Positions 4,372-26,734 of a DNA stretch of 64,000 nt are shown here, in pieces; within the stretch, counting starts at the first letter, position 1, and each line of letters starts with the position of its first letter. The DNA is from Myxococcota bacterium (GTDB lineage: Bacteria; Myxococcota_A; UBA9042; PHBI01; JAWLBL01), in assembly GCA_041687695.1 (NCBI GenBank), contig JAWLBL010000009.1, forward strand, positions 171,634-235,633, written 5' to 3'. A program made the translations under genes and the position numbers. The notes under the pieces are model-generated. The model did not search any database. It had not been told where the DNA came from and was given only the letters and a program-made list of their open reading frames with translations.

Positions 4372-4374
4372 CCC

Positions 4375-6917: not shown

Positions 6918-6920
6918 CCG

Positions 6921-8685: not shown

Positions 8686-8966
8686 GGGTCGCTCCGGTGT
8701 CGAGACCGGCGCCGCGCCGGGCCTCTTAAGAGAAGTCGGGCGATCGGCGCGATCTGTTGCGGACTTTCTGCGGCGGCGCCGACGATTGGGCGCAACGCAA
8801 CGAGATTGTTGCACAACGACACTGTCGCGCGGCGCGGTCATGTGGCGCGTCACCCAGGCGTACGCAACGATCTCCAGCACTTCACCGTCCTTGGGTGACA
8901 CGCTCGTTCGCTCCATCCATCGTCAGGGCCGCACAGCCTGCGGCCCATCGAGAAACCGGAGCAACG

Positions 8967-9013
8967 GATTCGTAATCAGCAGGTCCGCGGTTCAAGTCCG
9001 CGTGTCGGCTCCA
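8967..9013 (+). pseudogene. 3' fragment of tRNA-Thr(CGT), probable prophage att site
   Basis: GATT-CGT-AATCAG anticodon loop, T-arm CGCGGTTCAAGTCCGCG, acceptor 3' strand TGTCGGC-T-CCA. No complementary 5' acceptor strand or intact D-arm upstream. Confidence 0.85.
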
Positions 9014-9014
9014 A

Positions 9015-9047
9015 GAAAGCCCCTGGGAAACCGGGGGCTTTCGTGTT
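9015..9047 (+). terminator. Rho-independent terminator after the tRNA fragment
   Basis: GAAAGCCCC-TGG-GAAA-CCG-GGGGCTTTC hairpin followed by GTGTTT. Confidence 0.75.
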
Positions 9048-9140
9048 TCGAAGGCACGGCCAACACGCCTGAAGCAGCGCGGTACCCGCTCTGGTACCCA
9101 CGCCGGTTGCCGCGTGGGCTGACGCGTCGAGCGCGGCCGG

Positions 9141-9408
9141 TCAGGGGGCGCGGCGGACGCGGGAGAGGCCGACCTCGACGGGGTCGCGGTCGTAGGTGAG
9201 GCCGCTGCGGCTGGGCACGGCGGGGAGCGCGGTGCGGGCGAGGGGGGTCAGGGGGAGCTGGGCCTCGGCGGCGTCGCAGAGGGGGCGGCCTTCGGGGCTG
9301 CTGCAGAGCGAGCTGCGGACGTAGACGACGCAGCGCTCGCCGGCGAGATCGGCGGGGGTCCAGTCGCCGGGGAGGCGGACGACGCCGGCCAGCTCGCGGC
9401 GAGCGCCG
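9141..9408 (-). repeat. Orphan duplicate of the 3' end of the 24409..26451 gene (left direct repeat)
   Basis: Ungapped manual alignment to 24409..24676: 268 bp with 12 mismatches, stop codon included. Confidence 0.95.
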
Positions 9409-9708
9409 TCCCGACACGGACGTAGATGGCCGAGAAATAAGCGACACGACCCGGGAATCGACCCGGCACAGGGCCGCAGCACAAGGCCGGTGTAGGGTAG
9501 GTCATCTCCCGATCGTCACGCGTACGCCCGTCTCCGCGCTCGCTGCCTGAGCGCCCTGGTGTTCGAAACGCGTTCCGGGATCCGAGCCGCGGCAGGTCGT
9601 CGCGGCGTCTCCACCCCGAATGTCGGCGCCACTCTCTTGGCGACGCAGCGGCCATCGTCCGCTCTGCGTGGCCCCACCGGAGGGCGTCGATGTCTTGGAG
9701 GTCAACCC

Positions 9709-12582
9709 ATGCGTCCTGCCCTCTCCCTTGGACTCGCGGCGAGTCTCGCCGCGGCCCTCGGCCTGGTCGCTTGTACCGGCGGGCCCAACGGTCCCGCGGA
9801 ACCTGGCCCAGGTCACACCTCTACTGGACTCGCCTTGTCGGCGCATGCCGACGGCGCCGTGGGCTTCCACTACGTCGTGACGCGCGTCGCCTGCAACGGC
9901 GAGTCGCTGGATCCCGCCGACGCCGTCACCCACGAGGCGACCGAGCCGTTCCTGCCCTTCGAGTTCCAGGGCGACCCGATGAACCCGGCGGCGAACCACG
10001 CGTTCGCAGACCACTTCTTCACACTTCCCGCTGGATGCTACGACGTGTCCGCGACGCCGATCGACGCGGCCGGTGAACCGATGAGCGGGTGCGAGCCGGC
10101 ACGCGCCGCAGGGGTCGAGGTCGCAGATGCCGAGACCACGGAGATCCTGCTGATCAGTCACTGCGAGAGCGATCCGGTCGGAGGGCTCGATGGGATCGCG
10201 GCGCTCAACCACCCGCCGACGCTCACGCTCCTTGAATTCAACCCTTCCAAGTTCAACACGATCTGCGCCGATACCAAGGTCTGCGCGATCGTCACGGACA
10301 TCGACGACGACAAGATCCGGCTCGTGTGGCAGGTCACAAAGGGTGAGCTGTCGGGCGGTCCGACCGTCGTGAGCTCCGTCCAGCACGGCGGCAGCCTCAC
10401 CGAGTGCGTCGCTGTGGGCTCGGAGGTCGCGGGCGCGTTCGAAATCACCGTCTGGGCCTACGACCAGCGATACGACAACGAGGTGTGGATCGACTGGGAG
10501 GCTTGGTTTGCCTCCGAAGGCCACAACATCCTCTCCCATGATTCACTTTCGTTCCCGCTCTACTTCATGGGCGAGGATTGCTATCCCGGGGGAGGCTCTG
10601 ACCTGGACAAACCGGACGTGAGCCCGCCCTACGGGGACGTCCCACATGGCAAGGACACCGAATCGGATGGCCACGATGTCGGCCCATGCGATGCGAAGGT
10701 CGACGGACTCGATTGCTTCTGCGTGGGCGAAAGAGGCCCCGAAGGCCCCATGGGCCCCCGCGGACCGAAGGGGAAGATGGGTCCCCAGGGCCCCGAAGGT
10801 CCTGAGGGTCCCGAAGGCCCGGCAGGTCCCGAGGGGCCTGAGGGGCCGGTGGGTCCCGAGGGGCCGATGGGTCCCGAGGGGCCGATGGGTCCCGAGGGGC
10901 CGATGGGTCCCGAGGGGCCGATGGGTCCCGAGGGGCCGATGGGTCCCGAGGGCCCGATGGGTCCCGAGGGCCCGATGGGTCCCGAGGGCCCGATGGGTCC
11001 CGAGGGGCCGATGGGTCCCGAGGGGCCGATGGGTCCCGAGGGGCCGATGGGTCCCGAGGGCCCGATGGGTCCCGAGGGCCCGATGGGTCCCGAGGGCCCG
11101 ATGGGCCCCGCGGGTCCGACCGGCGCGACGGGCCCGGCTGGACCTGCCGGTCCCGAGGGCCCGATGGGCCCCGCGGGGCCGACCGGCGCGACGGGCCCGG
11201 CTGGACCTGCCGGCCCCGAGGGGCCGATCGGCCCCGCTGGTCCCGAGGGGCCGATCGGCCCTGCTGGTCCCGAGGGGCCGATGGGCCCCGCTGGTCCCGA
11301 GGGGCCGATGGGCCCCGCTGGCCCCGAGGGCCCGATGGGCCCTGCTGGTCCCGAGGGGCCGATGGGCCCCGCGGGTCCCGAGGGCCCGATGGGCCCCGCG
11401 GGTCCCGAGGGCCCGATGGGCCCCGCGGGTCCCGAGGGCCCGATGGGCCCCGCGGGTCCGACCGGCGCGACGGGCCCCGCTGGACCTGCCGGCCCCGAGG
11501 GACCGATGGGCCCCGCTGGTCCTGAGGGCCCGACGGGCCCCGCTGGACCTGCCGGTCCCGAGGGGCCGACGGGCCCCGCTGGTCCCGAGGGGCCGACGGG
11601 CCCCGCTGGTCCCGAGGGGCCGACGGGCCCCGCTGGTCCGACCGGCGCGACGGGCCCGGCTGGACCTGCCGGCCCCGAGGGACCGATGGGCCCCGCTGGT
11701 CCCGAGGGGCCGGTGGGCCCCGCAGGCCCGACCGGCGCGACGGGCCCGGCTGGACCTGCCGGCCCCGAGGGCCCGATGGGCCCGATGGGCCCCGCGGGTC
11801 CCGAGGGCCCGATGGGCCCCGCGGGTCCGACCGGCGCGACGGGCCCGGCTGGACCTGCCGGCCCCGAGGGCCCGATGGGTCCCGCGGGCCCCGAGGGGCC
11901 GATGGGCCCCGCTGGACCTGCCGGTCCCGAAGGCCCGATGGGCCCCGCTGGTCCCGAAGGGCCGACGGGCCCCGCAGGCGCGGATGGAGAGTCCGTCGTG
12001 GGCTTCTCCGAGGGACCGGGCTCAAACTGCACCTATGGCGGCGTCGCGTACACCGTAGGCGGCCAGACCGACTACGTGTGCAATGGCGAGCCGGGCCCTG
12101 AGGGCCCCGCGGGTCCGACCGGGCCCGAAGGCCCGCAGGGCCCTGCCGGTGGCATCATGACGTTCGGCTATTTCTATGCATTGATGCCGCCCGATAACGC
12201 CGCGACGGTCGCCGTGGGAGCTCCAGTCGACTTCCCACAGGACGGCGTCACGAACGGCATCGCGCGGACCGGTCCGAACACATTCGAGCTTCCGAACATC
12301 GGCGTCTACGAAGTGTTCTGGCAGGTGAGCATCAGCGAGGCTGGGCAGCTCGTCCTGGCGCTCGACTCGGGTGCCGGGCCGGTGGACGTGGCCAGCACCG
12401 TGGCGGGACGGGCGACGGGCACATCACAGATCGTCAACAACGTGCTCGTCCAGACGACCGTAGAGAGCACGATCCTGACGATCCGCAACCCGGCGGGGAA
12501 CGCCGCGGCGCTCACGGTGACACCACTCGCCGGAGGCACCCGTCCCGTCTCGGCGACGTTGGTCATCAAACAGATCCAGTAG
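9709..12582 (+). CDS. Collagen-like surface lipoprotein with a BclA-C-terminal-like head domain
   Basis: GGAGG RBS; lipobox LVAC; about 140 Gly-X-Y triplets (10726-11994); C-terminal [26 protein letters not shown] domain as seen in collagen-like spore-surface proteins. Confidence 0.88.
10726..11994 (+). repeat. Collagen Gly-Pro-X coding tandem repeats (9/18-bp units)
   Basis: Near-identical GGTCCCGAGGG(G/C)CCGATG units. Confidence 0.95.
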
Positions 12583-12612
12583 ATCGATCTCCGATCTTCG
12601 GGACTGTGTCCT

Positions 12613-12650
12613 CAAGGGCGAGCCGGCGGCGCACCGTCGGCTCGCCCTTG
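12613..12650. terminator. Strong hairpin between convergent genes
   Basis: CAAGGGCGAGCCGG..TCGGCTCGCCCTTG inverted repeat just after the collagen gene stop. Confidence 0.65.
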
Positions 12651-12860
12651 GCGTTCGAGCCGCGAGCAACCACGGACCGGCCTATGGTCTGAAGGTCGAC
12701 GGCGCCGCGTTCTCCGCGTGGCGTGCCGCGTGTTGTTGCACGACGGGCGGAGCCCGGTCAGCGGGCGGGGCGAACGCGCGGGAGGCTGGCCTCGACGGGC
12801 CGCGGTCGGAGGTCGGCCCCGTCCGCGGACCCCGTATTCGGGATCCGCGGACGTGCGCTC

Positions 12861-13649
12861 TCAGGCGTCGACCGGCTCGGCCGGCGCGGGCGCGGCCGGG
12901 GTCTCGGTGACCGCCTCGGACTCGGCGGGCGCAGCCTCGTCGCCGCTGGCCTTGCGGACCGTCGGACGCAGGCGCTCGGCGAGATCGTCGCGGCGTGCGA
13001 TGCGGAAGCCCTCGGACAAGACGTTGGCCGCGTACTGGTAGGCGCGGCGCCAGTCCTCCATCGCCCGGTCGCGCGCGCCCATGGCCTCCTGCGACTCGCG
13101 GTGCTCGCGGTCGACCTCGTCGATCGCCTCGGCGAGCGGCTCGCGGACCGCGGTCAGCTCGGCGACGACGAAGGCGGTGTCCAGCTTGCCGACGCCCCGC
13201 CGCTCGGCGGCGCGGGGGCTGCGCTCCATCAGGTGGATGGCGTTCTCGAGGAAGCCCGCCAGCTTGTCCGCGCTGCGCGGCGTCGCGCCCGCCAGCCCGT
13301 AGCTCGTGACGGCGCCCGCCCCCATGAAGTCCCGCACCAGCCCGCGCATGTCGGCGGTGGCCTCGGCAGCCTTCGCGTACGCCGCGTCGCGCTTCGCCCG
13401 GAAGCCGCCGTCATCCGACTGCTCGGCCGTGTACTTCAGCTCGGCCGCGACGAGCCCCTCGGTGCGCCCGTCGAGCACGTTAGCGGCCGAGGCGAACGTC
13501 GCGCCCGGGTCGGCCGGCGGCGCCACCCCGGCGGCGACACACTCCGAGAGCAGCCCCTCGGCGAGGAGCTCCGCGTGCGTCCTGGCAGCGGCGCTCACCT
13601 GCCGCGCGATGCTGGCCATGTTCTGAACCCGAACCGAGAGCTTGCTCAT
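12861..13649 (-). CDS. Hypothetical all-helical protein (262 aa)
   Basis: AGGAGG RBS before MSKLSVR; AEQSDD..R..RD, YGLAGATPR and LAERLRPT motifs; acidic Pro/Ala tail. The real gene is the 3' part of ORF 12861..15563. Confidence 0.8.
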   Translation of the reverse strand: MSKLSVRVQNMASIARQVSAAARTHAELLAEGLLSECVAAGVAPPADPGATFASAANVLDGRTEGLVAAELKYTAEQSDDGGFRAKRDAAYAKAAEATADMRGLVRDFMGAGAVTSYGLAGATPRSADKLAGFLENAIHLMERSPRAAERRGVGKLDTAFVVAELTAVREPLAEAIDEVDREHRESQEAMGARDRAMEDWRRAYQYAANVLSEGFRIARRDDLAERLRPTVRKASGDEAAPAESEAVTETPAAPAPAEPVDA

Positions 13650-13847
13650 GACGACCTCCTGCAACGATGACGACTTGATGCTGCCCCGCAGCGCGGGACC
13701 CCGAGTCCCTCGTGCGTTCCGGCAGCCGACCTCCATGAAACGGTCCCACCAGCGTAGCCCGACCCGTGCCGGGCCTGTCAACCGACCCCGAGACGATCGC
13801 CAGGACACGCAAGGTGAGGCAGTGTCGTCCGCCGCCGCAGGCGGCCC

Positions 13848-13976
13848 CGCGCCGGCCACGCCGGCGCTCTGGACCGCGCCGGCCACGCCGGCGCTCTGGA
13901 CCGCGCCGGCCATGCCGGCGCTATGGACCGCGCCGGCCATGCCGGCGCTATGGACCCCGCCGACCACGCCGGCGCT
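13848..13976. repeat. 27-bp tandem hairpin repeats (4 full + 1 partial)
   Basis: Unit CGCGCCGGC-CA(C/T)-GCCGGCGCT(C/A)TGGAC; each full unit has an 8-bp perfect stem and a 3-nt loop. Confidence 0.9.
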
Positions 13977-13996
13977 TCGCAATCTGCGATGGCCCT

Positions 13997-14388
13997 GAGG
14001 ACGATCGCAGGTGACGCGTTCCGAAACCGAAGGACTCCCCGACCGCTCGCAGGCCTCCTGATTGAAAACCGACGCGCCCCCCGACCGCTCGTAGGGGGCG
14101 TGTCTCCCCAGGGTCACGCCCGCCGAGCGCTCGCAGGTCGGCCTTCTCCAGCGGGACAGCCCTCCCGACCGCTCGCAAGCGGTCCTCGCAACCCGAACGT
14201 CACACCTGCGAGCGCTCGGGACCCGTCTGGTTTCTGCAACAGGCCACCTACGAGCGCTCAGGACCCGTCGCGTTTCTGCGACAGGCCACCTGCGAGCGCT
14301 CGGGACTCGTCTCGCTGCTGCAACAGGCCACCTGCGAGCGCTCGGGACCCGTCTCGCTCTTGCAACAGGCCAACTGCGAGCGCTCGGA
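13997..14388. repeat. 42-bp-period array of a CCTGCGAGCGCTCGG motif in two oppositely oriented halves
   Basis: Minus-oriented copies at 13997 (degenerate), 14039, 14081, 14123, 14165; plus-oriented 42-bp units at 14203, 14245, 14287, 14329, 14371. Confidence 0.88.
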
Positions 14389-14483
14389 CCGAGCTGGTTC
14401 CCCTCGAGCCGCCCGACCACCTCGGTTGCCGAGTTCCAAACCGCTGGGGTAGAACGCGAGATCCTCGTGCCCAGGAGGTCCTC

Positions 14484-17400
14484 ATGTCGCGCGCACACTG
14501 GAGCGACGTCGTCGCCGCCTTCACCCGTCACGCCGAGCACTACATCCGTCACGGGGGCGGCGAGGCGGCCCTCATCGGCCGCCGCGCCGAAGGTTCGGTC
14601 ACGCTGCAGTACGCAGGCCGGGTGGTCCTCGAGCTCCTGCAGAACGCGCTCGACCGCGCGGACCGGCAGGTCGAGGTCCGCTTCGAGGACGGGCGGCTCG
14701 TCGTCGCCAACGACGGCGCGCCGTTCACCGTCGATCCCGCCTTCGACTACGACCAACCGAAGCAAGGCGTCGCCCGGCGCGACTTCAACGCCCTGTGCGC
14801 GCTCCACACCTCGAACAAGTCCGCCGACCGCCAGCTCGGCAACAAGGGCATCGGCTTCCGCTCGGTCTTCGGCGTGGCCCGCCGCGTCCAGGTCTGGAGC
14901 AAACTCGCCGAGGGCGGCTGGTGGGGGCTCGAGCTCTCGTCCGAGCTGAACCCCGCAGAGTGGCCCGGCTCGGAGCTTCCCAAGCTCGACGAGCGCATCG
15001 AGTCGCTCGGGCCCGAGCGACGCCCGAGCTTCCACTTCCCCCGGCCGCTGCGCCGGGCGGACGCGCCGGCCGAGGGCCTCGACGCGATGGAGACCGCGGT
15101 CCTGCTCGAGGTCGAGGACCCGCAACACCGGCAGCAGATCCAGGACGAGGTCGACGGCCTGGCCGCGGTCCGCCTGCACTTCATCACGCTGCAGTGCCCC
15201 GGGATCGCCGTCAGCGTCCAGCGGAGCCCCAACCCCTCGGCGACCGGCTGGAGCCTGAGCACCCAGACCCACCCCGACCTGGCGGCTCTCGCCCGCGCCG
15301 CCGACCACGCCGTGCCGCAGCCCCGGGTCAGCGTCGCATGGCCTCCCGTGGGAAGCGCCCCGACCGGCGCCTTCTTCAACTACCTCCCGACTCGCGTCGG
15401 CACCGGCCTTCCGCTCGACGTCCACGCCGACTTCCAGCTCAAGGCCGACCGCGACACGATGGCGCTCGGAGCGAGCTCCGACGTGGGCCGGTACAACCTG
15501 GCCCTCCTCGAAAGAGCCGCCGAGCTCCACGTCGCGCGCCTCCGCGAGGCCTGCCGGGACCAAGCGCTGCCTCGCGAGGATCTATGGCTGCTCGCCGGTC
15601 GTCCCGACGGTGCGCCCGAGCCCTGGGTGCTCGCCCTCCGAAACCAGCTGTTCCCGGGCAAGTCCTGGGATCTCTGGCGCCAGCTCGCCGCCTCCTTCTT
15701 CCGCGAGGTCCGCCCCGAGGCGGCCTACCGCGCCTTCTGGGCCGCCACCCGCGCTTGGCTTCATCACCTGCTCGGCTCTGGTCACTGGACGCCCACCTGG
15801 CGGAAGGCAGCGGTGGACCTCTGCGACACCTTCGCCGGCGCCGGCATCCGGCTGATCCCGGTTCCAGGCCCGACGGGGCTCGATGCGGTCGCCCTGCCGA
15901 CCCGACAGCAGCGTGGGCTCCGCGCCGAGCGCCGCCTCTTCGTCCTGCGCGATCCCAAGCACGACGCCATCGCCATCCCCCAGGCCCTCCTCAGCCTCGG
16001 TCGCGCGGTGACGCGCTTCAACCTCGGGCCCTGGGAGGAGCCCTCGGGCGCCCTCCGCTTCGTCCCGGACGCGGTGCTCGGCGATCTCCGCCAGATCCCC
16101 CGCGACCCGGCGAACCTCGAGACGCAGCCCTCGCTCACCGAAGCCGACCAGACCGATCTACTCGCCTTCGCCAAGGCCCTCCTGCCGGCCGACCCGCCCG
16201 ATCACTTCGCCTGGCGCGCCTTCACCGACTCCGAGGACCGCCGCTTCTTCGGACGCGCCATAGCCACGCTGTTCCTGCCCACGACCGAGGGCCGCTGGGA
16301 GCCCGCTCGCCAGCTCACCGCCGACCGCGTGGACCGCGCTCGCCTGCTCGGCCCTGATGGCGAGCCCCTGCTGACGGACGCCTTCCTCGCCCGCCTGGGA
16401 GTCGCGCCCGCCGGAGCCGTCCCGCTGGTCGAAGAGGGCGACCGGGGACGCGTCGACCCGCTCGACGCCCCGCCGCCGCTCCAGCCGGCCGGGGCCGACC
16501 ACCTCGCGCGCCCCCTGGCCGCCCTGCTCGACGGACCGCCCTCGATCTCCGAGGTCGGCCACACCCTCGAAGGGCTGCCCGCAGACAACAAGGACTCGGC
16601 GGTGCGCCACGGCCTCGGTTCGACCGCTTGGCTGCCCCGCGCGCTCTTCCGCGAGCATCTCGACCCTGCAACCCAGCAACCCACGTTCATCCCGCTGCCC
16701 GAGCGCCTGGCCCCCCGTGACGTGCTCACGGCCCACCGCGACCCGCGCCGCGTGTTCCTGGCCGAGCCCATCGACGCAGGACACGACGAGGTGCTGGAGG
16801 AGTTGGGCGCCATCAAGAGCCTGGGAGACGAGCGCACCGCCCGTCGCGCCCCGGCCCTGCTCGACCTGCTCGCTTCACGCTGCCCCAACCCCGATGCGCT
16901 CACGGGCAGCCTGCGGACCCGGCTCGCCGCCCTCTTCGAGGCGCTGGTCGACGTGCTGTCGATCGACGACGGGCCCGAGGTGCCGGTCCTGATCGAGCAC
17001 AACGGCGCCCTTCGCTGGCGGAGCGCCGGCGAGGAGGCCTGGCTGGCCCGCGACGAGGATCGGAGCGCGCTGCGCCTGTACTTCCCCGACCTGCCGCGGG
17101 TCGCCGCCAGCCACCGCCGCGGCCTCGCCGAGCGCCTGGGCGTGCGAGAGGTCTCGCTGCGGCAGACGGTCCGCTCCGACGGAGCTCTCGAAGAGACCCA
17201 GCTGGCTCGAAAGCTCGCGGCCGCGCTCCGCGAGCACCTGGCCGCCTTCTGCGCCCTGGCCGAGGTCAGCCGGCTCGTGCCCGCGGTCGACCTGGAGCGG
17301 GTCCGCCGGGCCTGGCTGGGCGGGTCGCCGCCCGTCGAGCAAGCGAAAGACGCCTGGGTCGAGCTGGCCCTGGAAGGACCGGACCTCACCCCGCGGCCCT

Positions 17401-18821
17401 GGCGGCAGGGGCGGTTCGAGGACGTGTTCTACGTCCCGGGTCAGCAGCCGGGCGAGCCGGGCCGGCTGCTCTTCGACACCCAGCGCCCAGAGGGTCCGCC
17501 GCTCAGACACTTCGGCGAGGCGCTCGCGCGGCAGCTGGTCGGCAACCCGCTGCTGGGCCCGGTCTTCGCCGAGGCCCTGGCCGCCATCGAGACCGGGAGC
17601 CTGGCCGATCTCCTCGAGCGCCGTCATGCGTCCGAACTGGCCCGCGATCTGAGGCCCCAGCTAGAGCCGCTGCTTCCCCAGCAGCGGGCGCAGATCGAGA
17701 CCGCGCTCGAACGCTGGTGCGCGCGTCCGGCCGAGGTGATGCGACGGGGACGCATTGGCCGGGACGACCTGTTGGGACGGGTGGGCTTCGAGACCGCCAG
17801 CGCGCTTCGGCGAGCCCTGGTGGACGCCGTTGCTGACGACCAGCTCGCCGACTACCTGCCCACGCTGGTCATCGCCTCCGAGAACCGGGACACCTGGCGC
17901 GCCTGGCACCGCCGTTGGGCCGCCCGCCTGACCGCCTGGGTCGCCCACCAGCTGGAAGGCGAGCCGCCGCGGTCGACCTTGGCCGACTGCATCGAGCCGC
18001 GCCTCGACTGCCTGCTCTTCGATCCAGAGGTCGAGGCGTCCCAGTGGGTGCGCCGCCTCGGCCTGACCCTGCGCGAGCCGCTCGAGGTGACCCTCTCGGT
18101 CTTCGCCCCCGACTTCGCTCCGGTCGCCAGCCCGCCCGCTTCGCACGCGGCCCTCGGCTGGTCGGCCGCCCCGGGCACCCTCGGCTCGGCGACCGGCGGG
18201 CCGGCGGGCATCGTGACGCCCGAGAGCCTGGCCGAAGAGCAGGCCGCCCGGGCCGCGTGGGGCGACGCCGCCGAGGCGGCCCTGCTGGCCTGGGTCGTCG
18301 AGACGACCGCACCGCTGCTCGACCTACCCGGCGGCCGCGACCTCCTGGTCTCGGCCTTTCCCCCGTCCAGCCACACCCGCGCCCTGGTCGCCAAGGCGCT
18401 GGACGAGCGCAAGCCTCACGAGGCCCTGCACATAGCAAAGCTCTGGTCGGGCGCCGGCTTCGACCTGCTCGGTCTCGAGGTCGAAGCCGGCGAGCCGGTC
18501 CTGACCCGCTATGAGTGCAAGGGCCTGCCCCGAGACGCCGCCCGCATCCGAATCCACCTGTCCCGGCGCGAGCTCGCCGTCGCCCGCCAGGTCCAGCAGA
18601 CCGGCCGGGGCCGCTGGCGCCTGGTCGGCGTCGAGACCTCCGGCCGCTCGGTCGACCTGACGCCCCTGGTCGCCGACCTCCTGACCGCCGACCCAGCTCC
18701 CCTTCAGCCCCTCAGCTCCCTCGGCTTCGAACCCGACGGCCTGCGCCTGGTCGTCACCCGCCCCGTCACCCCACCGTCAGCTCGAAGTGACGGCGACCGC
18801 GTGACCGCTTCGATCGCCTGA
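14484..18821 (+). CDS. Sacsin/NOV-like GHKL ATPase with C-terminal DUF3883-like (PD-(D/E)xK) nuclease domain
   Basis: AGGAGG RBS; LELLQNALD, VANDGAPF, SNKS..LGNKGIGFRSVF, VHADFQL..DR; C-terminal WGDAAE..GAGFDLL..YECKG..IHLSRRE. Confidence 0.85.
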   Translation: MSRAHWSDVVAAFTRHAEHYIRHGGGEAALIGRRAEGSVTLQYAGRVVLELLQNALDRADRQVEVRFEDGRLVVANDGAPFTVDPAFDYDQPKQGVARRDFNALCALHTSNKSADRQLGNKGIGFRSVFGVARRVQVWSKLAEGGWWGLELSSELNPAEWPGSELPKLDERIESLGPERRPSFHFPRPLRRADAPAEGLDAMETAVLLEVEDPQHRQQIQDEVDGLAAVRLHFITLQCPGIAVSVQRSPNPSATGWSLSTQTHPDLAALARAADHAVPQPRVSVAWPPVGSAPTGAFFNYLPTRVGTGLPLDVHADFQLKADRDTMALGASSDVGRYNLALLERAAELHVARLREACRDQALPREDLWLLAGRPDGAPEPWVLALRNQLFPGKSWDLWRQLAASFFREVRPEAAYRAFWAATRAWLHHLLGSGHWTPTWRKAAVDLCDTFAGAGIRLIPVPGPTGLDAVALPTRQQRGLRAERRLFVLRDPKHDAIAIPQALLSLGRAVTRFNLGPWEEPSGALRFVPDAVLGDLRQIPRDPANLETQPSLTEADQTDLLAFAKALLPADPPDHFAWRAFTDSEDRRFFGRAIATLFLPTTEGRWEPARQLTADRVDRARLLGPDGEPLLTDAFLARLGVAPAGAVPLVEEGDRGRVDPLDAPPPLQPAGADHLARPLAALLDGPPSISEVGHTLEGLPADNKDSAVRHGLGSTAWLPRALFREHLDPATQQPTFIPLPERLAPRDVLTAHRDPRRVFLAEPIDAGHDEVLEELGAIKSLGDERTARRAPALLDLLASRCPNPDALTGSLRTRLAALFEALVDVLSIDDGPEVPVLIEHNGALRWRSAGEEAWLARDEDRSALRLYFPDLPRVAASHRRGLAERLGVREVSLRQTVRSDGALEETQLARKLAAALREHLAAFCALAEVSRLVPAVDLERVRRAWLGGSPPVEQAKDAWVELALEGPDLTPRPWRQGRFEDVFYVPGQQPGEPGRLLFDTQRPEGPPLRHFGEALARQLVGNPLLGPVFAEALAAIETGSLADLLERRHASELARDLRPQLEPLLPQQRAQIETALERWCARPAEVMRRGRIGRDDLLGRVGFETASALRRALVDAVADDQLADYLPTLVIASENRDTWRAWHRRWAARLTAWVAHQLEGEPPRSTLADCIEPRLDCLLFDPEVEASQWVRRLGLTLREPLEVTLSVFAPDFAPVASPPASHAALGWSAAPGTLGSATGGPAGIVTPESLAEEQAARAAWGDAAEAALLAWVVETTAPLLDLPGGRDLLVSAFPPSSHTRALVAKALDERKPHEALHIAKLWSGAGFDLLGLEVEAGEPVLTRYECKGLPRDAARIRIHLSRRELAVARQVQQTGRGRWRLVGVETSGRSVDLTPLVADLLTADPAPLQPLSSLGFEPDGLRLVVTRPVTPPSARSDGDRVTASIA

Positions 18822-18858
18822 GGTACCCACGACTCGTTCCTCAGTCGTTCGACGGGTC

Positions 18859-19917
18859 TCAGGTCTCGTCGAAGTCGAGGACGAGCGACGCCCCTGGTGC
18901 GGCATACCTGGCCTCGTAGGCATGGCAGCTTTGGAGGTCCGCGCTTGACCAGTGTTCGTTGCGTGGCGTGCGGTAGTTGAAGCACAGGATCTTCGGCGCG
19001 AGGTCCCCAGTGAGGATGCGCGCGATGGAGGCGTCGTCTGGGTGGTTGAACCGCTTGCCGTTGGTCGAGACGAGGTAGTGCGCGGCCGGTAGGCGCGCGA
19101 CGAGTTCGCGGCTGAGGTTACCCTTGCTGCCGTGGTGAGGCAGCTTGAACACGTCGAGGCGGTCCGGAAGCGACTCGACCCTTGCGAGCGCGCCGAGCAG
19201 AACGGACGGAAAAGCATCGCCCGAAAACAGGCACGTCCAGCCTCCGTACTCGAAAAGAAAGGCGATGCTGGAGCCGTTGGCAACCGCGTCGTCCTCCTCG
19301 AACGGCTCGGCCGCGAGCGCCTCCACATCCACGGACGGGCTCGCCGCGCCTTCTTCTTCCGACTCGTCTTCGCCGCCCAGCCTGTCCAGGGCCTCGAGTC
19401 GCTTCTCGAGCTTCGGGATCTCTCGGTTCCATGCGCGCCGAAGGCGACGCAGGCGCTCGGCGTCGGGAGACAGAAGCGTCAAGGTCGCCCCTCCGGGAAG
19501 GCGCACGATCGGCAAGGGGCCGTGCTGGGGCACGACCACAGCGCCGCCGTCGAAGGCCCGATTCCAAGGCCACCGCAGCTGGTCGAGACGGCGCGAGAGG
19601 ACTTCGCCCTGGTAGACACCGAGGCCGTCAGGATCGAGGTGGTCGGGCCCGTTGAACCACACGTCGCCAGGGCGAAGGCGATCCGCATGCTCGTCGAGAA
19701 GGGCGAGGATCCCGGCGATGTGGTCGGCGTCGATGTGGGTGACGACGAGCAGGTCGAGTTCGAGCGGAGCGGACTTCGTTCCGAGCCGTCGCTCGAGAAG
19801 GCGGGCGGTTCCGGCGAGGCCGCCGTCGATGAGGACCCGGTGGGAGCGGTCCGGCGACCCGTACTCGACCCAGAGGGAGTCGCCGTAACTCGCCGGGAGC
19901 ATCTCGATGCGAAGCAT
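18859..19917 (-). CDS. ComEC/Avs1a-like MBL-fold metallohydrolase (putative nuclease effector)
   Basis: MLPASYGDSL, VLIDGG, VTHIDADHIAG, VWFNG, NGSSIAFL, LFSGDA, KLPHHGSKGN and STNG..FNHPD motifs. Confidence 0.88.
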   Translation of the reverse strand: MLRIEMLPASYGDSLWVEYGSPDRSHRVLIDGGLAGTARLLERRLGTKSAPLELDLLVVTHIDADHIAGILALLDEHADRLRPGDVWFNGPDHLDPDGLGVYQGEVLSRRLDQLRWPWNRAFDGGAVVVPQHGPLPIVRLPGGATLTLLSPDAERLRRLRRAWNREIPKLEKRLEALDRLGGEDESEEEGAASPSVDVEALAAEPFEEDDAVANGSSIAFLFEYGGWTCLFSGDAFPSVLLGALARVESLPDRLDVFKLPHHGSKGNLSRELVARLPAAHYLVSTNGKRFNHPDDASIARILTGDLAPKILCFNYRTPRNEHWSSADLQSCHAYEARYAAPGASLVLDFDET

Positions 19918-19918
19918 G

Positions 19919-22741
19919 TCAGAGCCTCCAGTCGGCATCGCCGAAGGCGACGAGGCCGAGCGCCATGGTCTTGCCCGCCGCAACGAGCCTTCTTCGCGCC
20001 ATCCGGAACGCGTCTCCGACCGTCGGGGAGAGCGCGGGATCGGCGGCACCCGACGCGGACAGCTCTAGTAGGGAGCGCACGAGCTCCGCGCCGGTACCGG
20101 CGGCGTGTCGGCCGATGACACGGCCATAAGTCCCTACGACGACGGCGGCCTGCTCCTGTCGCCAGGTGGCGAGGAGCGTGAAGGGGGTCTCACCGCCGAC
20201 CGCCGTGTCGCAGCCGAGGAGGAGCACGATGGGGCGGCGCCCGTCGCGCCCGAGCACGTGCCGGTCGGCTTCGATGCTCGCTTGGGGGAGCCGGTCCTGC
20301 CTATCGATCTCGATGGCGAGTGTCGCCGCGTCTCCCACCGTATGGCCCAGCACGACCAGCACTCCCGGCGAGCGGGCATTGAGGTTGTTCTCCCAATCCG
20401 CCCAGAAGGAGACCTGTGCGAACCGCTCCGACCCAAGGTCGTCGTCCAGCGCCGCGACGATTTGCGGGAGCACGCCCTCGGGCCTGTTGGCGCGAACAGA
20501 GCTGGCCCAGAGGACACCATCGCCGAGCCCGACCTGCTCACGCCGTCGCCGGTCCTCGGAGGTCGCCCGAGCTTGCAGGACTGCGAAATCGGCCCCTTCC
20601 TTGGTGACCGCCCTGGCGACCGCGGGCGCGTGGAGGTGGCGCTCGATGACCTTGTGGAGACCCCAGAACGCTAACGGGCAGACGACCCCGCGAGACGCCC
20701 CGGGGCACTCCCACGAGCAGTCGCCGGCGGGGTCCATCTGCAAGTCGGTGGGGCAGACGGTTGCCGCGTCGTCGGGAGGTGGTCCGTCGTAGCAAACCTC
20801 CAGCGGAAGGACGGCATCGGGGCGCGCCGAGATCACCTGGAGGCGATCGGCCGAGGCGGCCGCGTTGAGCCCGGCATCCTTCTCGAGGGATCGAGCGAGC
20901 ACGCGACCCGCCCGCGCCAGGCGTACGTAGAGTTGGCGCGTACGCTCGTCGTCGGGCGTGCCGTCCTGGCCCTCGGCATACTCGTCGAGCAGCTCCCCGA
21001 TGGACCTCGCCGCCTGCTCGGCCTTGTCCGGGAGGACGAGGAGGTCGGCTTCCTGGTCCTTGATCGCGAGGATCAACGCTTCGCCGGCGGGCGTGTGATT
21101 GAACACCAGGGTGGCGTCAAAACCCTGGTCCGAAGGCTCCGGCGCGAGGCCGCGAAGGATGGCCTCGGGGATGAGGCGGATGCGCTCCTCGGTCTGCCCG
21201 GCTCCGACCCATCCGTCGAGCACCGCGGTCTGGAGGACGCGACCTTGGTGGAGCACGGCGAGCCGCGCACGATAGCGCGGGACGTCGTTCGGAACGACGA
21301 TCTCGACGGTTGCCGAATCCGAAGGACCTGCGGCCGGAAGGTGCAGGGATCGCATCAAAGGGGTGCGTTCGCGGCCGACCAGGGGCGCGAGTACGACCGT
21401 GAGGGTGTGACCGGAGGTGGACGGCGGCAGCTCGTCGATGGGGAAGGGTGCGGCCAGGGCCGACCACCCGTCCTGGGGAGGGGCGATGGCGACGTGAACG
21501 GCGTGCCGCGCTCCTGGCTCGAACACCTGGAGCGCGGCGGCTTCCTTCCCAGCGTCGGCCCGGGTGACCCGGGCCTGCAGGTGCCGGGCGAGTGGGGTCT
21601 CGAGGAGCTCGCGCCCAACCAGGGTGAGGGGGAGCAGGTCGGTCGCGCCGTGAGACTCGGCGTGGAACTCGAAGTCGCTGAGGGCCGCCTCGAGCGCCTC
21701 GTCGGGATCGGCGCTGACCGCGAGCTTGGGGTGGTCGAGGTCCCAGCCTCGCCGGCGTAGTGCGCCCGAAAGCCCTTCGAAGTCGTGGAGCTGAAGGTGG
21801 GAGAGCCGGTTCAGCGCCAGCTTCTCGGCGGACTCGAGCCAGCCTCGGCTGTGGAGACGATCAGCAATGGAGACGACCGTGTCGCTGAGCCGGCTGGCGT
21901 CCAGGCCGGTGCCGCGCGCCAGGATGAGCGGCGGCAGGGACGTGCCCCCTTTGGAGGCCGTCTCGAAGAGCGCGACGTCGAGCGCCTGGTCGTGGCTGAG
22001 GGCGGCGACCAGGTCGACCAGCCAGCCCGCCGGATCCTCGGGTGTGGCGACGACGACCGCGGCCTCGGCGTCGAAGCGGCGAAGCGCCCGGGAGGCGACC
22101 TCGAGCGCCGGCTCGCGGTCGGCTGGCTCGACCCAGACGAGTACCGCGTTGACGCGACCCGCCGGTCGAGGCGCGTCGACGTCGAGGTCGCACCTCGGGA
22201 GGACCAGCAGGTCGATCGTCTCGGAGGAAGCATCGGCCGCGACCGTCCGCCTGAGGTGCTCGAGGCCGCCGCGGTCGTCGAAGCCGGACCGAAGGGCTGC
22301 AGAGCGCGGCGTTTGGAGGAAGCCGAAGTCGAAGGGCCAGTGCCAGGCGACCTCGCGCTTGGGCGCCGGACGCTCGACCACGACCGAGGCGACGCCCGGC
22401 GCATCGCGGAGCGCCGAAACCCACGCTTCCAGGTCGTCGCGGGCAGGAAGGTCAGACTCCATGAGCAGGAGACGTAGGCCGCGGGAGATCACCCAGGCCT
22501 CGAATTGCCAGAGCGCGCCCGACTTCGCGGGGTCGAGGTGCTGCGCCTCGCACCAGGGGCGTGCCTGTCTGAGAATTCCGCGTGCGGGCCACCCAACTGG
22601 AAGTTCCGCAGGGGAGCGCGCCGAATCCGGAAGGAAGAGCGCGCCCGCTAGCGCGGCGCCGAAGGCCGCTGGCTCGAGGTTCGCCCCCCAATCGCCCGAC
22701 GGTCTCCTGTCGGGGCCGAGGAACGGATCGGTGGGGGTCAT
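19919..22741 (-). CDS. Large CHAT (caspase-like) protease-domain protein
   Basis: C-terminal LPLE..YD, FWGLHKVIER, VVLGH (His), LLLGCDT (Cys), VGDAFRMARR..LVAFGDADW; central beta-rich domain; ATGA overlap with the patatin stop. Confidence 0.8.
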   Translation of the reverse strand: MTPTDPFLGPDRRPSGDWGANLEPAAFGAALAGALFLPDSARSPAELPVGWPARGILRQARPWCEAQHLDPAKSGALWQFEAWVISRGLRLLLMESDLPARDDLEAWVSALRDAPGVASVVVERPAPKREVAWHWPFDFGFLQTPRSAALRSGFDDRGGLEHLRRTVAADASSETIDLLVLPRCDLDVDAPRPAGRVNAVLVWVEPADREPALEVASRALRRFDAEAAVVVATPEDPAGWLVDLVAALSHDQALDVALFETASKGGTSLPPLILARGTGLDASRLSDTVVSIADRLHSRGWLESAEKLALNRLSHLQLHDFEGLSGALRRRGWDLDHPKLAVSADPDEALEAALSDFEFHAESHGATDLLPLTLVGRELLETPLARHLQARVTRADAGKEAAALQVFEPGARHAVHVAIAPPQDGWSALAAPFPIDELPPSTSGHTLTVVLAPLVGRERTPLMRSLHLPAAGPSDSATVEIVVPNDVPRYRARLAVLHQGRVLQTAVLDGWVGAGQTEERIRLIPEAILRGLAPEPSDQGFDATLVFNHTPAGEALILAIKDQEADLLVLPDKAEQAARSIGELLDEYAEGQDGTPDDERTRQLYVRLARAGRVLARSLEKDAGLNAAASADRLQVISARPDAVLPLEVCYDGPPPDDAATVCPTDLQMDPAGDCSWECPGASRGVVCPLAFWGLHKVIERHLHAPAVARAVTKEGADFAVLQARATSEDRRRREQVGLGDGVLWASSVRANRPEGVLPQIVAALDDDLGSERFAQVSFWADWENNLNARSPGVLVVLGHTVGDAATLAIEIDRQDRLPQASIEADRHVLGRDGRRPIVLLLGCDTAVGGETPFTLLATWRQEQAAVVVGTYGRVIGRHAAGTGAELVRSLLELSASGAADPALSPTVGDAFRMARRRLVAAGKTMALGLVAFGDADWRL

Positions 22742-23883
22742 GCAGCCTCCGCGGGCGCATGGGCAAGGTCGGGCGTCACCCTCTCGCCTTCTAGGACATC
22801 GAGCATGCGGGATGCTTGGCGTTCGCCCCAGGCCACGAGCGCGTCGATATCGGCCTGGGTCATGCGTGTGAGGCGCGTGTCGATGTCGGCCAGGTCGGGC
22901 CGACTCTCGGGTCCCTCCGGCAGTGGGTGGCGCCCCGAGCGGGTGACGAGCTCGCCCTGGATCGAGAAGTACGCGCCTAGACGGTGCCCACTGGCGAGCT
23001 CGCGCTCGAGCCAGCGCGTACGAAGGGCTCGCACCTGGTCGTCGAAGATGGCGCGGACCCGGAGGAGCTGTCCGAACCACTCAAGGCCGCCCCGACGAAC
23101 GTCCTGGAGGCGCTTGCCCCCATCGCTCACCAAGACGCAGCGGAACTTGTGCGCGGTCTCGTGGCCGAAGTTGTCGTAGACGCCCCCGTCGGTGAGCCGG
23201 ATGTGGCGACGCAGCTCCCGCTGGAGCTCCGGGTTGCCACGAGCTAGCGTCGGCTTTCCCTTTTCCGGCGCCGCAGGAGCCTTCAGGCGCATCGGTGAGA
23301 GGATGGGCGGAAACGCCGAGGAGGCGGCGACGGCCTGCGCGAGCGGCAGGACCGGATCTTCCCACATCCCCAGCTTGTAGTCGGCCATGTACGGGCGCGA
23401 AAAGCGGAAGAGAACGCCCGTCTGGAGGTTGGCCGCGTTGATGACGAAGCGCGGCCCTTCGTGCTCGTCCGGTAGGTTCTGGAGCGTCGCGCCCTTGAAG
23501 AGGTGGCGGTCATAGGCGCGCGCTACCTGGTTGGCCCCGGACGTGAACGGAAGGAGCCCGAGCGCAACGGCCTTCCAATCCAGGGTGCGGGAGGCGAGGG
23601 CTCGGATGGGCTGCTCCACGAGGTCGCCGAACCGGGTCGCGAGTCCGTCGGCGTCGAAGGCGAGCTCACGCCAACGCAGCCCCAGCAGTCCCGCTACGAT
23701 GGAGCCACCGGAGACGCTGGATACGCGCGTGAGGCGCACCAGCCAACCTCGCTGGTTCAGCGCGCGCAACGTCCCGAGGTGGTACAGCATCGCGCGATAT
23801 CCGCCGCCCGAGAGGCAGAGCGCGATCCCCGGCCGGATCTCGTCGTGAAAAGGGATTGGGAGGCTTGGGGACGGGCTCTTCAT
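22738..23883 (-). CDS. Patatin-like phospholipase
   Basis: LCLSGGGYRA, SSVSGGS (nucleophile Ser), AVAASSAFPP, LTDGGVYDN; AGGAG RBS before ATG 23883 (alternative start 23952). Confidence 0.92.
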   Translation of the reverse strand: MKSPSPSLPIPFHDEIRPGIALCLSGGGYRAMLYHLGTLRALNQRGWLVRLTRVSSVSGGSIVAGLLGLRWRELAFDADGLATRFGDLVEQPIRALASRTLDWKAVALGLLPFTSGANQVARAYDRHLFKGATLQNLPDEHEGPRFVINAANLQTGVLFRFSRPYMADYKLGMWEDPVLPLAQAVAASSAFPPILSPMRLKAPAAPEKGKPTLARGNPELQRELRRHIRLTDGGVYDNFGHETAHKFRCVLVSDGGKRLQDVRRGGLEWFGQLLRVRAIFDDQVRALRTRWLERELASGHRLGAYFSIQGELVTRSGRHPLPEGPESRPDLADIDTRLTRMTQADIDALVAWGERQASRMLDVLEGERVTPDLAHAPAEAA

Positions 23884-23966
23884 GGGGGCTCCTGGCGAGT
23901 CGGCCGAAGGTGGCGGGACCGTAAAGGATGAGGCGAAGTCAGGTCGCTTCATCTCATCTTCGCCGT

Positions 23967-24227
23967 CTATCGAGTCGCGGCTGCAACGGAGTGGCTCTTG
24001 TCCTTGGCCTCGACGACGGCCAGGGGGAGGTTGGCCTGATAGAAGAGGAGGTAGTCGGCCCGCTTCTGCTTGCCGCGGGAGGCGAGCTTGCCGCGGACGA
24101 TGACCCGGCCCGCGGTGAACGTGTACTCGCGGCGGACCTGCGTCAGCTTGTCCCAGCCGGCCTTCGCGATGGCCGGGGTGATGAAGTTCTGACAGACCTC
24201 CGCTTCGGTGAGCGACTTCTTGCTCAT
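23967..24227 (-). pseudogene. hsdR: Truncated type I restriction subunit R (N-terminal 86 aa only)
   Basis: MSKKSLTEAEVCQNFITPAI..AGW..REY.FT.GRVIVRGK..RG..KRADYLL..PLAVVEAK followed by an early stop; no helicase region. Confidence 0.85.
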
Positions 24228-24314
24228 GCGGGTCCCCCCTCTCGCGCTGCCGTTGCCCCGTGTGAATCGATCGACCACGAGGGGGCATCACCCCGTACGT
24301 ACAGGTTCGGCGGG

Positions 24315-24343
24315 ATTGTTCGCGGTCCGGATCGGGGCGTCAA
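24315..24343 (-). promoter_or_regulatory. Putative sigma-70 promoter for hsdR'-patatin-CHAT-MBL
   Basis: Minus strand reads TTGACG-N17-AACAAT. Confidence 0.5.
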
Positions 24344-24408
24344 GGGGGGCCTAAGCCTCGGGGGCGCGGCGAACGACGGGTGGAATGGGCTCTCGGGCCT
24401 GGGCCGGG

Positions 24409-24676
24409 TCAGGGGGCGCGGCGGACGCGGGAGAGGACGACCTCGACCGGGTCGCGGTCGTAGGTGAGGCCGGCGCGGCTGGGGACGGCGGGCAGCGCGG
24501 TGCGGGCGAGGGGGGTCAGGGGGAGCTGGGCCTCGGCGGCGTCGCAGAGGGGGCGGCCCTCGGGGCTGCTGCACAGGGAGCTGCGGACGTAGACGACGCA
24601 GCGCTCGCGGGCGAGGTCGGCGGGGGTCCAGTCGCCGGGGAGGCGGACGACGCCGGCCAGCTCGCGGCGGGCGCCG
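24409..24676 (-). repeat. Right direct repeat (3' end of the intact membrane-protein gene)
   Basis: Matches 9141..9408. Confidence 0.95.
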
Positions 24677-26451
24677 GGGACGCGGTAGGCCGGGAGCATG
24701 AGCATGCGGTCGCCGGCGCGCTCGACGTGGGCGACGAGGCAGCCGGGCTCGAGCGCCTCGAGCTGCTGGGCGAGCCAGAGGTATTCGGCGTGGTCGGTGG
24801 TCCTGGGCGGGCGCCAGGCGTGGTGGGCGACGAGCAGGAGGGCCGCCGCCAGGGCCGGGGCGACGAAGGCGAAGGGGCGCCAGGCGAGGAGGCGCGCGGG
24901 CAGGAGCGCGACGCCGGCGAGCAGGGGCCAGAGCAGGAAGAGCCGGTCGAAGCTGGCCTGCCACAGCGGGCTCTGGGCGAAGATGGGGCGCAAGAGGAGG
25001 CAGGCCGCGACGGCGGCGCCGGCCAGGGGCAGCCAGCCGGCGGCGCGGCCGGGGGCCAAGCGGAGGCCGAGGACGCCCAGGAGCGCGGCGGCGCCCGCGA
25101 GGGCGAAGGTCGAGGGCGGGGTGACGGTGTCGCGGACCGAGGCGCTGGCGGCGGCTTCGGCGGCGACCAGGGCCAGAACACCGCCGCTGGTCAGGGCGAC
25201 GGCGAGGGCGGCCAGGCCTGAGGCGAGGGCGAGGCGGGGCAGGCTGGCGTGCCCGGCGGGGCGGGCGCCGGCCAGGATGGCGAGCGGGACCAGGGCGGCG
25301 GCGGGCCAGGCGGCCGGGTGGACGCGCACGGCCTGGGCGAGCAGGAGGGCGGCGGCGCAGGCGAGCGGGGCGGCGTGGCGGAGCGAGGTGCGGCGGCCGG
25401 CGGCGACGAGGAGGGCGCCGGCCGCGGCGAGCAGGGCCGTGAGCAGCGGGAAGTAGGACTCGGTGGCCGAGAAGAGGACGGAGGCCGGGTCGAGGGCGAC
25501 GACGAGGGCGGCGAGGGCGGCGGGAGTGCGCGGCAGGCCGGCGAGGCGGGCGGCGGCGAAGGCGAGCGGGGCGACGAGGGCGCCGAGGGCGGCGTTGGCG
25601 AGGAAGAGGGCCTGGTCGGGGCGGGCGGGGGCGAGGGCGGCCAGGGGGCCCAGGACCTCGGGGTAGCCGGGGCCGTAGCCCTGGAGCAGGAGCGGGCTGA
25701 GGGCGCCCTCGACCCAGAGCGGGCCGGCGCCGTTGACGCGCAGGGGGCCCCAGAGGCCGGCCAGGCCGCGGGCGGCCAGGGCGAGGAGCAGCGCGGCGGA
25801 CGAGGTCAGCAGGTCGGCGCGGCCGAGGCGGGCGACGGAGCGCCAGGAGGCCACGAGGGCCAGGGCCAGGGCGAGCAGCACGAGCCAGGGCCCGAGGTGA
25901 GCGGAGCCGAGCGGCGCGAGGACGGACAGCGGCGTGTCGGCGCGCGGCGGGGCGGAGGACGGGGCGGGCGCGGCGGCGGACGAGCCGGGCGGCGCGGCGG
26001 GGTCGGAGGTGGGGGCGTCGAGGGCGGTCCACTTGAAGGCGGCCTCGCGGGCGGTCACGCGCGCGGCCAGCGCGGTCACCAGCTCGGGCGGCGGGGCGCC
26101 GGCGCGCGCGACCAGGCGGAAGCGGTCGGTCCGGGCGAGCGCGGGGCCGTCCTCGGCGACGTGCCGGAGGGCGATCTCGAGCTCGACCGGGGGCGCGCCA
26201 CAGGAAAAGCGCGCAGCCACCTCGCTCATGACGATGCGCGCGCCGAGCAGGCGGCAGGCGCCCGGGAGGTCCTCGCCGAGCCCCATCATCTCGCCGACCA
26301 GGCGCTCCTGACCCGGCGGGATGCCCACCCGCGCCGGCGGCTGCCCGGACGCCGGCCCCGAGGCGCCCACCAGCACCAGCGCGACGAGCGACGCGACGAG
26401 CCAGCCCCCCCGCGTGCGTCCTCGTCCCGGATGCCCCTGCGGCCACGTCAT
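24409..26451 (-). CDS. Polytopic membrane protein, possibly GT-C glycosyltransferase-like
   Basis: Many TM segments, YGPGYP and SATESY loop motifs, Cys-containing C-terminal domain; start approximate. Confidence 0.6.
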   Translation of the reverse strand: MTWPQGHPGRGRTRGGWLVASLVALVLVGASGPASGQPPARVGIPPGQERLVGEMMGLGEDLPGACRLLGARIVMSEVAARFSCGAPPVELEIALRHVAEDGPALARTDRFRLVARAGAPPPELVTALAARVTAREAAFKWTALDAPTSDPAAPPGSSAAAPAPSSAPPRADTPLSVLAPLGSAHLGPWLVLLALALALVASWRSVARLGRADLLTSSAALLLALAARGLAGLWGPLRVNGAGPLWVEGALSPLLLQGYGPGYPEVLGPLAALAPARPDQALFLANAALGALVAPLAFAAARLAGLPRTPAALAALVVALDPASVLFSATESYFPLLTALLAAAGALLVAAGRRTSLRHAAPLACAAALLLAQAVRVHPAAWPAAALVPLAILAGARPAGHASLPRLALASGLAALAVALTSGGVLALVAAEAAASASVRDTVTPPSTFALAGAAALLGVLGLRLAPGRAAGWLPLAGAAVAACLLLRPIFAQSPLWQASFDRLFLLWPLLAGVALLPARLLAWRPFAFVAPALAAALLLVAHHAWRPPRTTDHAEYLWLAQQLEALEPGCLVAHVERAGDRMLMLPAYRVPGARRELAGVVRLPGDWTPADLARERCVVYVRSSLCSSPEGRPLCDAAEAQLPLTPLARTALPAVPSRAGLTYDRDPVEVVLSRVRRAP

Positions 26452-26670
26452 CCCGGCTACGCTGCCCAGGGCCCTGCCCCCTGTCAACCTGGGGCCGGTC
26501 GATGGGGAGGGCCGGGCGAGATGTCGCACGTGCGTTGCGACTGTCGCGACGGATGGGCGTCGGCGCTGCCGAGCGGGCCGTCCAGCGGGGCTGCGTTCGG
26601 TCGGCACCGATCGGCCGGAGGCGCCCTGGGTGCGGGCGCAGAGGCCTGATGGGGCGCGGGGCGGGTGATT

Positions 26671-26686
26671 AGGCACGGTGCTTGCT
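26671..26686 (+). promoter_or_regulatory. Putative sigma-54 promoter of sulP
   Basis: AGGCACGGTGCTTGCT fits GG-N10-GC and is close to the TGGCACG-N4-TTGC consensus. Confidence 0.65.
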
Positions 26687-26734
26687 TTACTGGTCCACGC
26701 ACCCGGGCCGGAGCGCCCCAAGCGAGGTCACCCA

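Follow-up and report, generated by a model that had tools for sequence, protein, structure and literature searches.

The window analysed here, a 64,000-nt stretch of a Myxococcota genome, carries three genes on its minus strand in the order patatin-like phospholipase, cysteine protease and MBL-fold protein (Table 1). The tight coupling described in the initial annotation holds to the nucleotide in the open reading frames of the window: The patatin and protease genes share an ATGA overlap, and a 1-nt gap separates the protease from the MBL gene. An in-frame alternative ATG for the patatin lies upstream at 23952, and the truncated hsdR gene that had been reported directly before the trio is indeed found 14 nt ahead of this codon, and a tblastn search of the genome gave it as the only match. 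The sigma-70-like match 5' of the hsdR stub (one observed, compared with a mean of 0.1 after shuffling) suggests a promoter, and the trio probably shares the promoter of the stub. All three proteins retain the catalytic motifs that had been read from their sequences: The patatin keeps GGGYR, SVSGG and DGG, His800, Gly843 and Cys844 of the protease are invariant across 146 aligned homologues, and H61/D63/D65/H66, D234 and H261/H262 of the MBL are invariant in 71 sequences.

Table 1. Genes and features of the locus, in window positions
Feature	Position	Strand	Evidence or remark
15.5-kb block holding the trio	9139..24676	.	bounded by the 270-nt direct repeat
270-nt direct repeat, 96%	9139-9408 and 24407-24676		copies the 3' end of the membrane-protein gene 24409-26721
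sacsin/Tiamat TmtA-like gene, 1,445 aa, convergent neighbour	14484..18821	+	PADLOC TmtA 8.5e-59, residues 34-362
Gated MBL-fold pro-nuclease (CanC/HamM/Avs1a type), 352 aa	18859..19917	-	PADLOC LmuA 2.4e-62, Avs1a 4.4e-37
Predicted gating sites of the MBL: Leu99-Gly100 (loop 1), Leu180-Gly181 (loop 2)
CHAT/separase-type cysteine protease, 940 aa	19919..22741	-	AlphaFold model, fold searches, invariant dyad
C-terminal pseudo-protease and active CHAT domain	19919..21196	-	fold search and conservation
His800 codon; Cys844 codon	20344-20342; 20212-20210	-
Ig-like beta-sandwich, residues 386-515	21197..21586	-	all-beta in the model; many Ig-like matches, Z 7-8.5
Probable dead second CHAT-like module, residues 1-290	21872..22741	-	VIA fold matches
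Patatin-like phospholipase, 381 aa, accessory gene	22738..23883	-	Pfam PF01734 9.5e-20
Truncated hsdR stub, 86 aa, context	23967..24227	-	REase_I 8.3e-27
sigma-70-like promoter match 5' of the hsdR stub	24315..24343	-	consensus match only

The repeat-bounded block that holds the trio adjoins a prophage, whose end lies at a tRNA-Thr fragment (8959-9052), and the GC3 of the trio (0.83-0.84) lies below that of three host genes (0.97-0.98); the window copy looks recently acquired. Positions 1-9052 contain the right-hand terminus of a roughly 44-kb prophage inserted at tRNA-Thr, with baseplate, tail fibre and lysis-like genes according to the ORF reading; two low-GC genes at this terminus (7428-8485) are read as encoding an ImmA/IrrE-like metallopeptidase (HELGH motif) and a membrane protein. 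The fragment itself duplicates, at 88%, the 3' part of tRNA-Thr(CGT) together with the sequence behind it at C9:136074-136187. The sacsin-like neighbour of the initial annotation is present as a TmtA-like gene, convergent and on the strand opposite to the trio; because tblastn detects no match to it in the 79 genome loci described below, we regard it as a neighbour and rejected it as a component. We take the C-terminus of its product, from a motif recognized by eye, to resemble a PD-(D/E)xK nuclease; this region has no Pfam match. Elsewhere in the window we observed a lipoprotein-like protein of 1,007 aa whose Gly-Pro-X repeat is long and collagen-like (9559-12582), a 27-nt tandem repeat (13820-13981) with further copies scattered across the genome (C5, C11, C18, C48), 42-nt direct and inverted repeats upstream of the sacsin-like gene (14039-14412), and at least nine copies of a 108-nt Cys-rich coding repeat (36197-37360).

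The initial assignment of the protease to the CHAT family stands at the level of fold. The window protein has no Pfam or PADLOC match and no meaningful NCBIfam match, and a PDB sequence search returned separase only, at E 1.3, with nothing useful for the N-terminal part. Scanning loci with the single sequence likewise yielded nothing, and alignments were needed to find relatives: A profile search recovered 3,819 clusters at E 0.001 and 1,598 at E 1e-30 or better, the latter being clusters at 50% identity that may include proteins sharing only part of the profile. In the AlphaFold model (pLDDT 84, pTM 0.82), the C-terminal half aligns with the TPR-CHAT protease Csx29 (Z 21.0, rmsd 3.6, 295 aligned residues) and with separase (Z 20.6, rmsd 4.1, 308 aligned residues); the CHAT label derives from this model-based fold search together with weak CHAT matches in 2 of 44 relatives. 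With Csx29/TPR-CHAT of type III-E, SAVED-CHAT and separase the protein shares the succession of a pseudo-protease and an active CHAT fold, but it comes without TPR, SAVED or Cas7-11, its predicted substrate is the MBL, and it possesses an additional N-terminal CHAT-like module. Moreover, since Cys663 and Cys688 are invariant in the 146 homologues, of which at least 90% also retain Cys675 and Cys679, the insert that bears these residues suggests a metal site.

Examination of the N-terminal and central parts by structure prediction, which the initial annotation had proposed, revealed the Ig-like domain and the probable dead module listed in Table 1. When the N-terminal part was modelled alone, its top 11 VIA matches were all CD-clan proteases or proteins of the same fold (Z 8.6-6.7, rmsd 3.9-5.2), the best of them including SAVED-CHAT, gingipains and separase at Z 8.6-8.1, a range in which chance matches occur, and Foldseek returned no match at E 0.001 or better. 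The module has no conserved His or Cys at the assumed dyad-equivalent positions, and residues 1-290 probably form a catalytically dead second CHAT-like module; because hhalign of the N-terminal against the C-terminal half detects no sequence signal of duplication (probability 0.2), this reading depends on fold scores of medium height. The loci share no conserved gene for a dedicated sensor. In one longer relative (P0185), the protease is fused with CHAT, AAA and TPR domains, which indicates that a few cases do have a separate sensor. At L114:11750-13657, 3' of genes for a DUF2235 lipase and a CHAT protein, we saw a second copy of the protease that comprises just its N-terminal and Ig-like portions.

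To define the unit, we examined the best 79 of 242 genome matches and the best 80 of 219 metagenome matches, two sets that overlap in part and over-sample Betaproteobacteria. An MBL gene lies directly 3' of the protease in 77 of the 79 genome and 78 of the 80 metagenome loci (155/159), and the four loci without a visible MBL are all cut by contig ends; likewise, all six plasmid matches of the protease adjoin an MBL match. Tree distances of protease and MBL correlate with a Spearman coefficient of 0.92 over 43 loci. The three-gene layout is beyond chance, because the gene order recurs across many phyla. The synteny expected at the outset thus holds for protease and MBL in nearly every locus and for the lipase in 51 of 83 (see below); consequently, the protease and the MBL form the unit and the lipase is optional. 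Protease and MBL are retained clade-wide in Betaproteobacteria and Acidobacteriota, the system was not found in 60 relatives from the same order or class, and a search of viral contigs gave no relative of either protein.

For the MBL, PADLOC gives a match to RTasMBL at 1.3e-33 in addition to the stronger LmuA and Avs1a matches. A Leu/Met-Gly pair occurs in loop 1 of 70 and in loop 2 of all 71 aligned MBLs, compared with 23 of 218 equal-length windows of the MBL C-terminal core used as background, and the single loop 1 exception has a Leu-Gly that the stricter pattern missed. In a FastTree of 108 MBLs, rooted on two Lamassu-type MBLs and lacking KaeCanC, the CHAT-linked MBLs interleave with six CanABC-type plasmid MBLs, albeit with modest inner supports; the window MBL pairs with a Caballeronia CanABC-type MBL (support 0.98), a placement on a long branch that calls for caution. 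By eye, MBLs linked to CanA-type caspases (L171-L175, L178) have a Glu three places before the gating Gly, where CHAT-linked MBLs often have Asp or Gly, which possibly reflects protease-specific recognition.

These features place the locus close to a system that has been described. According to the text of PMC12799240 (Tuck et al., published 2025), an MBL pro-nuclease comes after a caspase gene in canu loci, whose composition varies and includes TPR and Ig-like domains; the one form tested in that text, the three-gene KaeCanABC of Klebsiella aerogenes, requires both catalytic sites and two gating-loop glycines against T4, the KaeCanC mutants G104K and G189K ablate defence, and each of these glycines is preceded by Leu or Met. 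Gly100 and Gly181 of the window MBL align with G104 and G189 when compared by eye with the sequences in Table S1 of that paper. The text of PMC12642450, moreover, names a caspase-linked MBL clade (clade 2) of the same MBL zymogen family as the window MBL, maps double cleavage for trypsin-linked MBLs, which are the ones tested there, and treats a caspase-activated alpha/beta hydrolase as a separate module. The initial view that the locus does not represent a named system is therefore not upheld: Here, too, the MBL gene stands directly 3' of a CD-clan protease with a His/Cys dyad, the nuclease carries two glycine gating insertions at the sequence level and falls within the caspase-linked MBL radiation of the above tree, the protease contains an Ig-like domain, and neither a STAND ATPase nor a cyclase is present. 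Because the MBL retains its two Leu-Gly gating loops and groups with CanABC-type nucleases in the tree, a caspase-unlocked MBL nuclease is an already known kind of system.

The locus is nevertheless not the CanABC prototype. KaeCanA, as described in the text of PMC12799240, is a MALT1-like protein of about 390 aa with a C-terminal Ig fold that acts with CanB, whereas here a single 940-aa CHAT/separase-type protein has its active domain last, its Ig-like domain N-terminal to the active domain and a probable dead second module; no CanB gene lies between protease and MBL, and a lipase gene is often attached. The protease has no Peptidase_C14 match, its best folds being Csx29 and separase, and hhalign against the CanA-like and the CanB-position protein of a CanABC-type locus of S. 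americanum gave probabilities of 0.1 and 0.4, respectively. Identity with CanABC was rejected on these grounds. What is new is the different protease family and the frequent, not constant, lipase neighbour. The word "patatin" is absent from the main text and supplementary tables of PMC12799240, as are "lipase", "CHAT" and "DUF2235" from the main text of its preprint, in both cases outside the figures; a CHAT-type layout may already be drawn in Fig. 4B or the supplement. Similarly, "patatin", "CHAT" and "phospholipase" do not occur in the main text of PMC12642450, the consulted part of PMC13069673 does not describe the trio, and a search of openly accessible papers, chiefly of their main texts, listed no paper on caspase-MBL loci with a patatin or DUF2235 lipase.

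Other known systems fit less well. AVAST type 1 (Avs1a), Lamassu hydrolase-protease, HamMAB and DRT MBL possess a homologous gated MBL, but they use a downstream trypsin-like protease that is fused to a sensor and cuts after Ile, and these partners are absent here. AVAST type 1 was rejected because the MBL reaches 194 bits on the NCBIfam Avs1a model, below the cut-off of 420, and none of the three proteins has a trypsin or STAND match; Lamassu hydrolase-protease was rejected because the MBL is the final gene of the trio's strand run, with no trypsin-fused LmuA and no conserved LmuB/LmuC-like neighbour. The likeness to CBASS lies in CapV, where a patatin fold serves as death effector (PMC12480259); CBASS was rejected since no cyclase occurs at the locus or among the conserved neighbours, and the patatin is flanked by the hsdR stub and the protease.

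Taken together, we consider it likely, by analogy with Canu, that the locus encodes a protease-gated suicide system in which a CHAT/separase-family protease cuts the loops of the MBL and the released DNase kills or arrests the cell. At rest, two loops would cover the active site of the MBL and keep it a pro-nuclease. Infection by a phage, the most likely trigger, would activate the 940-aa protease, probably via its Ig-like or dead CHAT-like module or via oligomerisation. By analogy with Canu, HamM and Avs1a, the His800/Cys844 dyad would then cleave both MBL loops at, or adjacent to, Leu99-Gly100 and Leu180-Gly181, and the freed nuclease, presumably a DNase, would destroy DNA so that the cell dies or stalls. 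The patatin would be an optional, exchangeable and co-transcribed lipase that probably belongs to the same response and is not needed for the core. We infer cleavage, DNase activity, trigger, anti-phage role and the role of the lipase, in contrast to anatomy, folds, synteny, loop conservation and tree position, which were observed; because the protease has no detectable sequence homology to the CanA- and CanB-like proteins of a CanABC-type locus, the mechanism is carried over across protease families. The initial proposal that the protease unlocks a nuclease and/or a phospholipase accordingly finds support in its nuclease part, where the conserved Leu-Gly sites fit the Canu mechanism, whereas cleavage of the patatin and direct sensing of infection by the protease are hypothetical steps.

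If so, the same gated nuclease is paired with a second caspase-clan family, with its Leu-Gly sites kept. This single-protein branch may help to address how Canu senses infection: Because everything upstream of the nuclease is one protein, sensing should be easy to dissect by domain deletion. Such loci have probably been missed or mislabelled as Lamassu or Avs1 fragments, because Pfam, PADLOC and NCBIfam fail on the window's protease.

The lipase gene is the variable part of the layout. After setting aside 10 genome and 24 metagenome loci that were too short and reclassifying five by hand, a patatin gene was found next to the pair in 46 of the 69 genome loci and 35 of the 56 metagenome loci that were informative. 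Dereplication yielded 104 loci, with a patatin upstream in 40 and downstream in 7, a DUF2235/Tle1-like lipase in 4, neither in 32 and 21 uninformative; any lipase thus neighbours the pair in 51 of 83 informative loci (47 patatin, 4 DUF2235), counts that overstate independent events because kin share traits. An obligate trio, as initially assumed, was rejected in view of the 32 loci that have none. At least 90% of the aligned linked patatins retain the catalytic motifs. Compared with unlinked patatins, the linked ones show no gating insertion or extra loop, and the PADLOC phospholipase effector model matches the window patatin at E 0.076 only. A loop-gated patatin was rejected on this comparison, and the protein is probably not a loop-gated zymogen; because it lacks the insertion and is often missing, we treat it as accessory.

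Two readings of the lipase were weighed. In the first, it is wired into the switch, either as a second effector released by the protease, so that DNA and membrane come under attack at once, or as an upstream enzyme whose lipid product activates the protease. Lipases neighbour the pair far more often than the six patatin genes of the whole 8-Mb genome would suggest, the linked patatins, which stand to one or the other side of the protease-MBL pair, fall into at least six groups, of which two are membrane-bound, and in L044 a protease of the large betaproteobacterial clade stands beside a patatin from another group, apparently swapped in place. DUF2235, whose fold is unrelated to patatin, takes the same slot directly 3' of the MBL in L079, L114 and L138 and lies divergently upstream in L123. 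Moreover, two of the six CanABC-type plasmid loci have a lipase (in Bradyrhizobium a DUF2235 gene of the same orientation, in Sinorhizobium americanum a divergent patatin), and a third has a divergent alpha/beta hydrolase. The exchange of folds, however, argues against one fixed interface, as do the missing gating insertion and the loci without lipase against a wired partner; the biggest block of cases belongs to one betaproteobacterial clade, none of the four CHAT-type plasmid loci has a lipase, patatin distances track those of the protease less closely (0.70) than MBL distances do (0.92), and five unlinked patatins of the same phylum interleave with linked ones in the tree. We therefore hold a wired lipase to be somewhat unlikely.

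The second reading makes the lipase a passenger: Lipase, caspase and TIR genes would gather in conflict-gene clusters, with the patatin acting alone. The weaker correlation with the protease fits this reading, as do the close patatins found in 5 of 250 same-phylum genomes, none of which stands beside this protease within 1.5-kb flanks and one of which belongs to a genome (G018) without any protease match. The flanks of the chromosomal loci described below, with other caspase, CHAT, clostripain or TIR genes in 8 of 34 cases, point in the same direction. Against it stand the translational coupling in the window, the tight co-oriented spacing across phyla and the repeated filling of the same slot, so that a passenger appears possible, if doubtful. 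As a separate observation, a membrane protein of about 700 aa with a C-terminal patatin domain directly follows the MBL in L109 (8817-10946), L118, L141 and L156.

The setting of the loci bears on the target of the switch. For 34 long chromosomal loci, we took two genes from either flank with a rough gene caller. The resulting 133 proteins are mostly metabolic, and for none of them is the best match a restriction, CRISPR, transposase or integrase family; three of the eight loci flanked by other caspase, CHAT, clostripain or TIR genes are from related Accumulibacter. Plasmid copies, by comparison, have IS elements, HNH, TIR or caspase genes in their vicinity, and the plasmid set comprises six loci with CanABC layout (caspase family, hypothetical, MBL; one fused), the four of CHAT type and two Lamassu-like ones. 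The defence-island setting proposed initially is hence present for the window and some plasmid copies and was not seen at the 34 chromosomal loci. The metabolic flanks weaken the defence-island argument and give room to a role other than phage defence, namely a module for programmed death or stress, for instance in bacteria that form biofilms or flocs; the clade-wide retention and the lack of matches in viral contigs also speak for such a role. As every tested member of the gated MBL family defends against phage, according to the texts of PMC12799240 and PMC12642450, plasmid copies keep company with mobile and conflict genes, and the window copy looks recently acquired, we judge a module not aimed at phage to be very unlikely.

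The most far-reaching combination of these ideas is a separase-like protease that carries its own dead twin as brake or sensor, together with a wired lipase, repeatedly recruited from unrelated folds, whose lipid product of membrane attack switches the caspase on or which the caspase fires as a membrane-destroying enzyme alongside the DNase, in a large unannotated branch of Canu; as a whole, we regard it as unlikely. Were the lipase part of the circuit, bacterial immunity would gain, within the reach of our searches, a first case of lipid-triggered caspase activation or of a caspase with a two-effector output. A further gene recurs at several loci: Members of a small membrane-protein family lie just 5' of the protease (L030:5007-5498, L048:6355-6855, L056:2812-3330, L149:1587-2315, L154:4563-5402), and in three Bacteroidota loci a member stands between patatin and protease.
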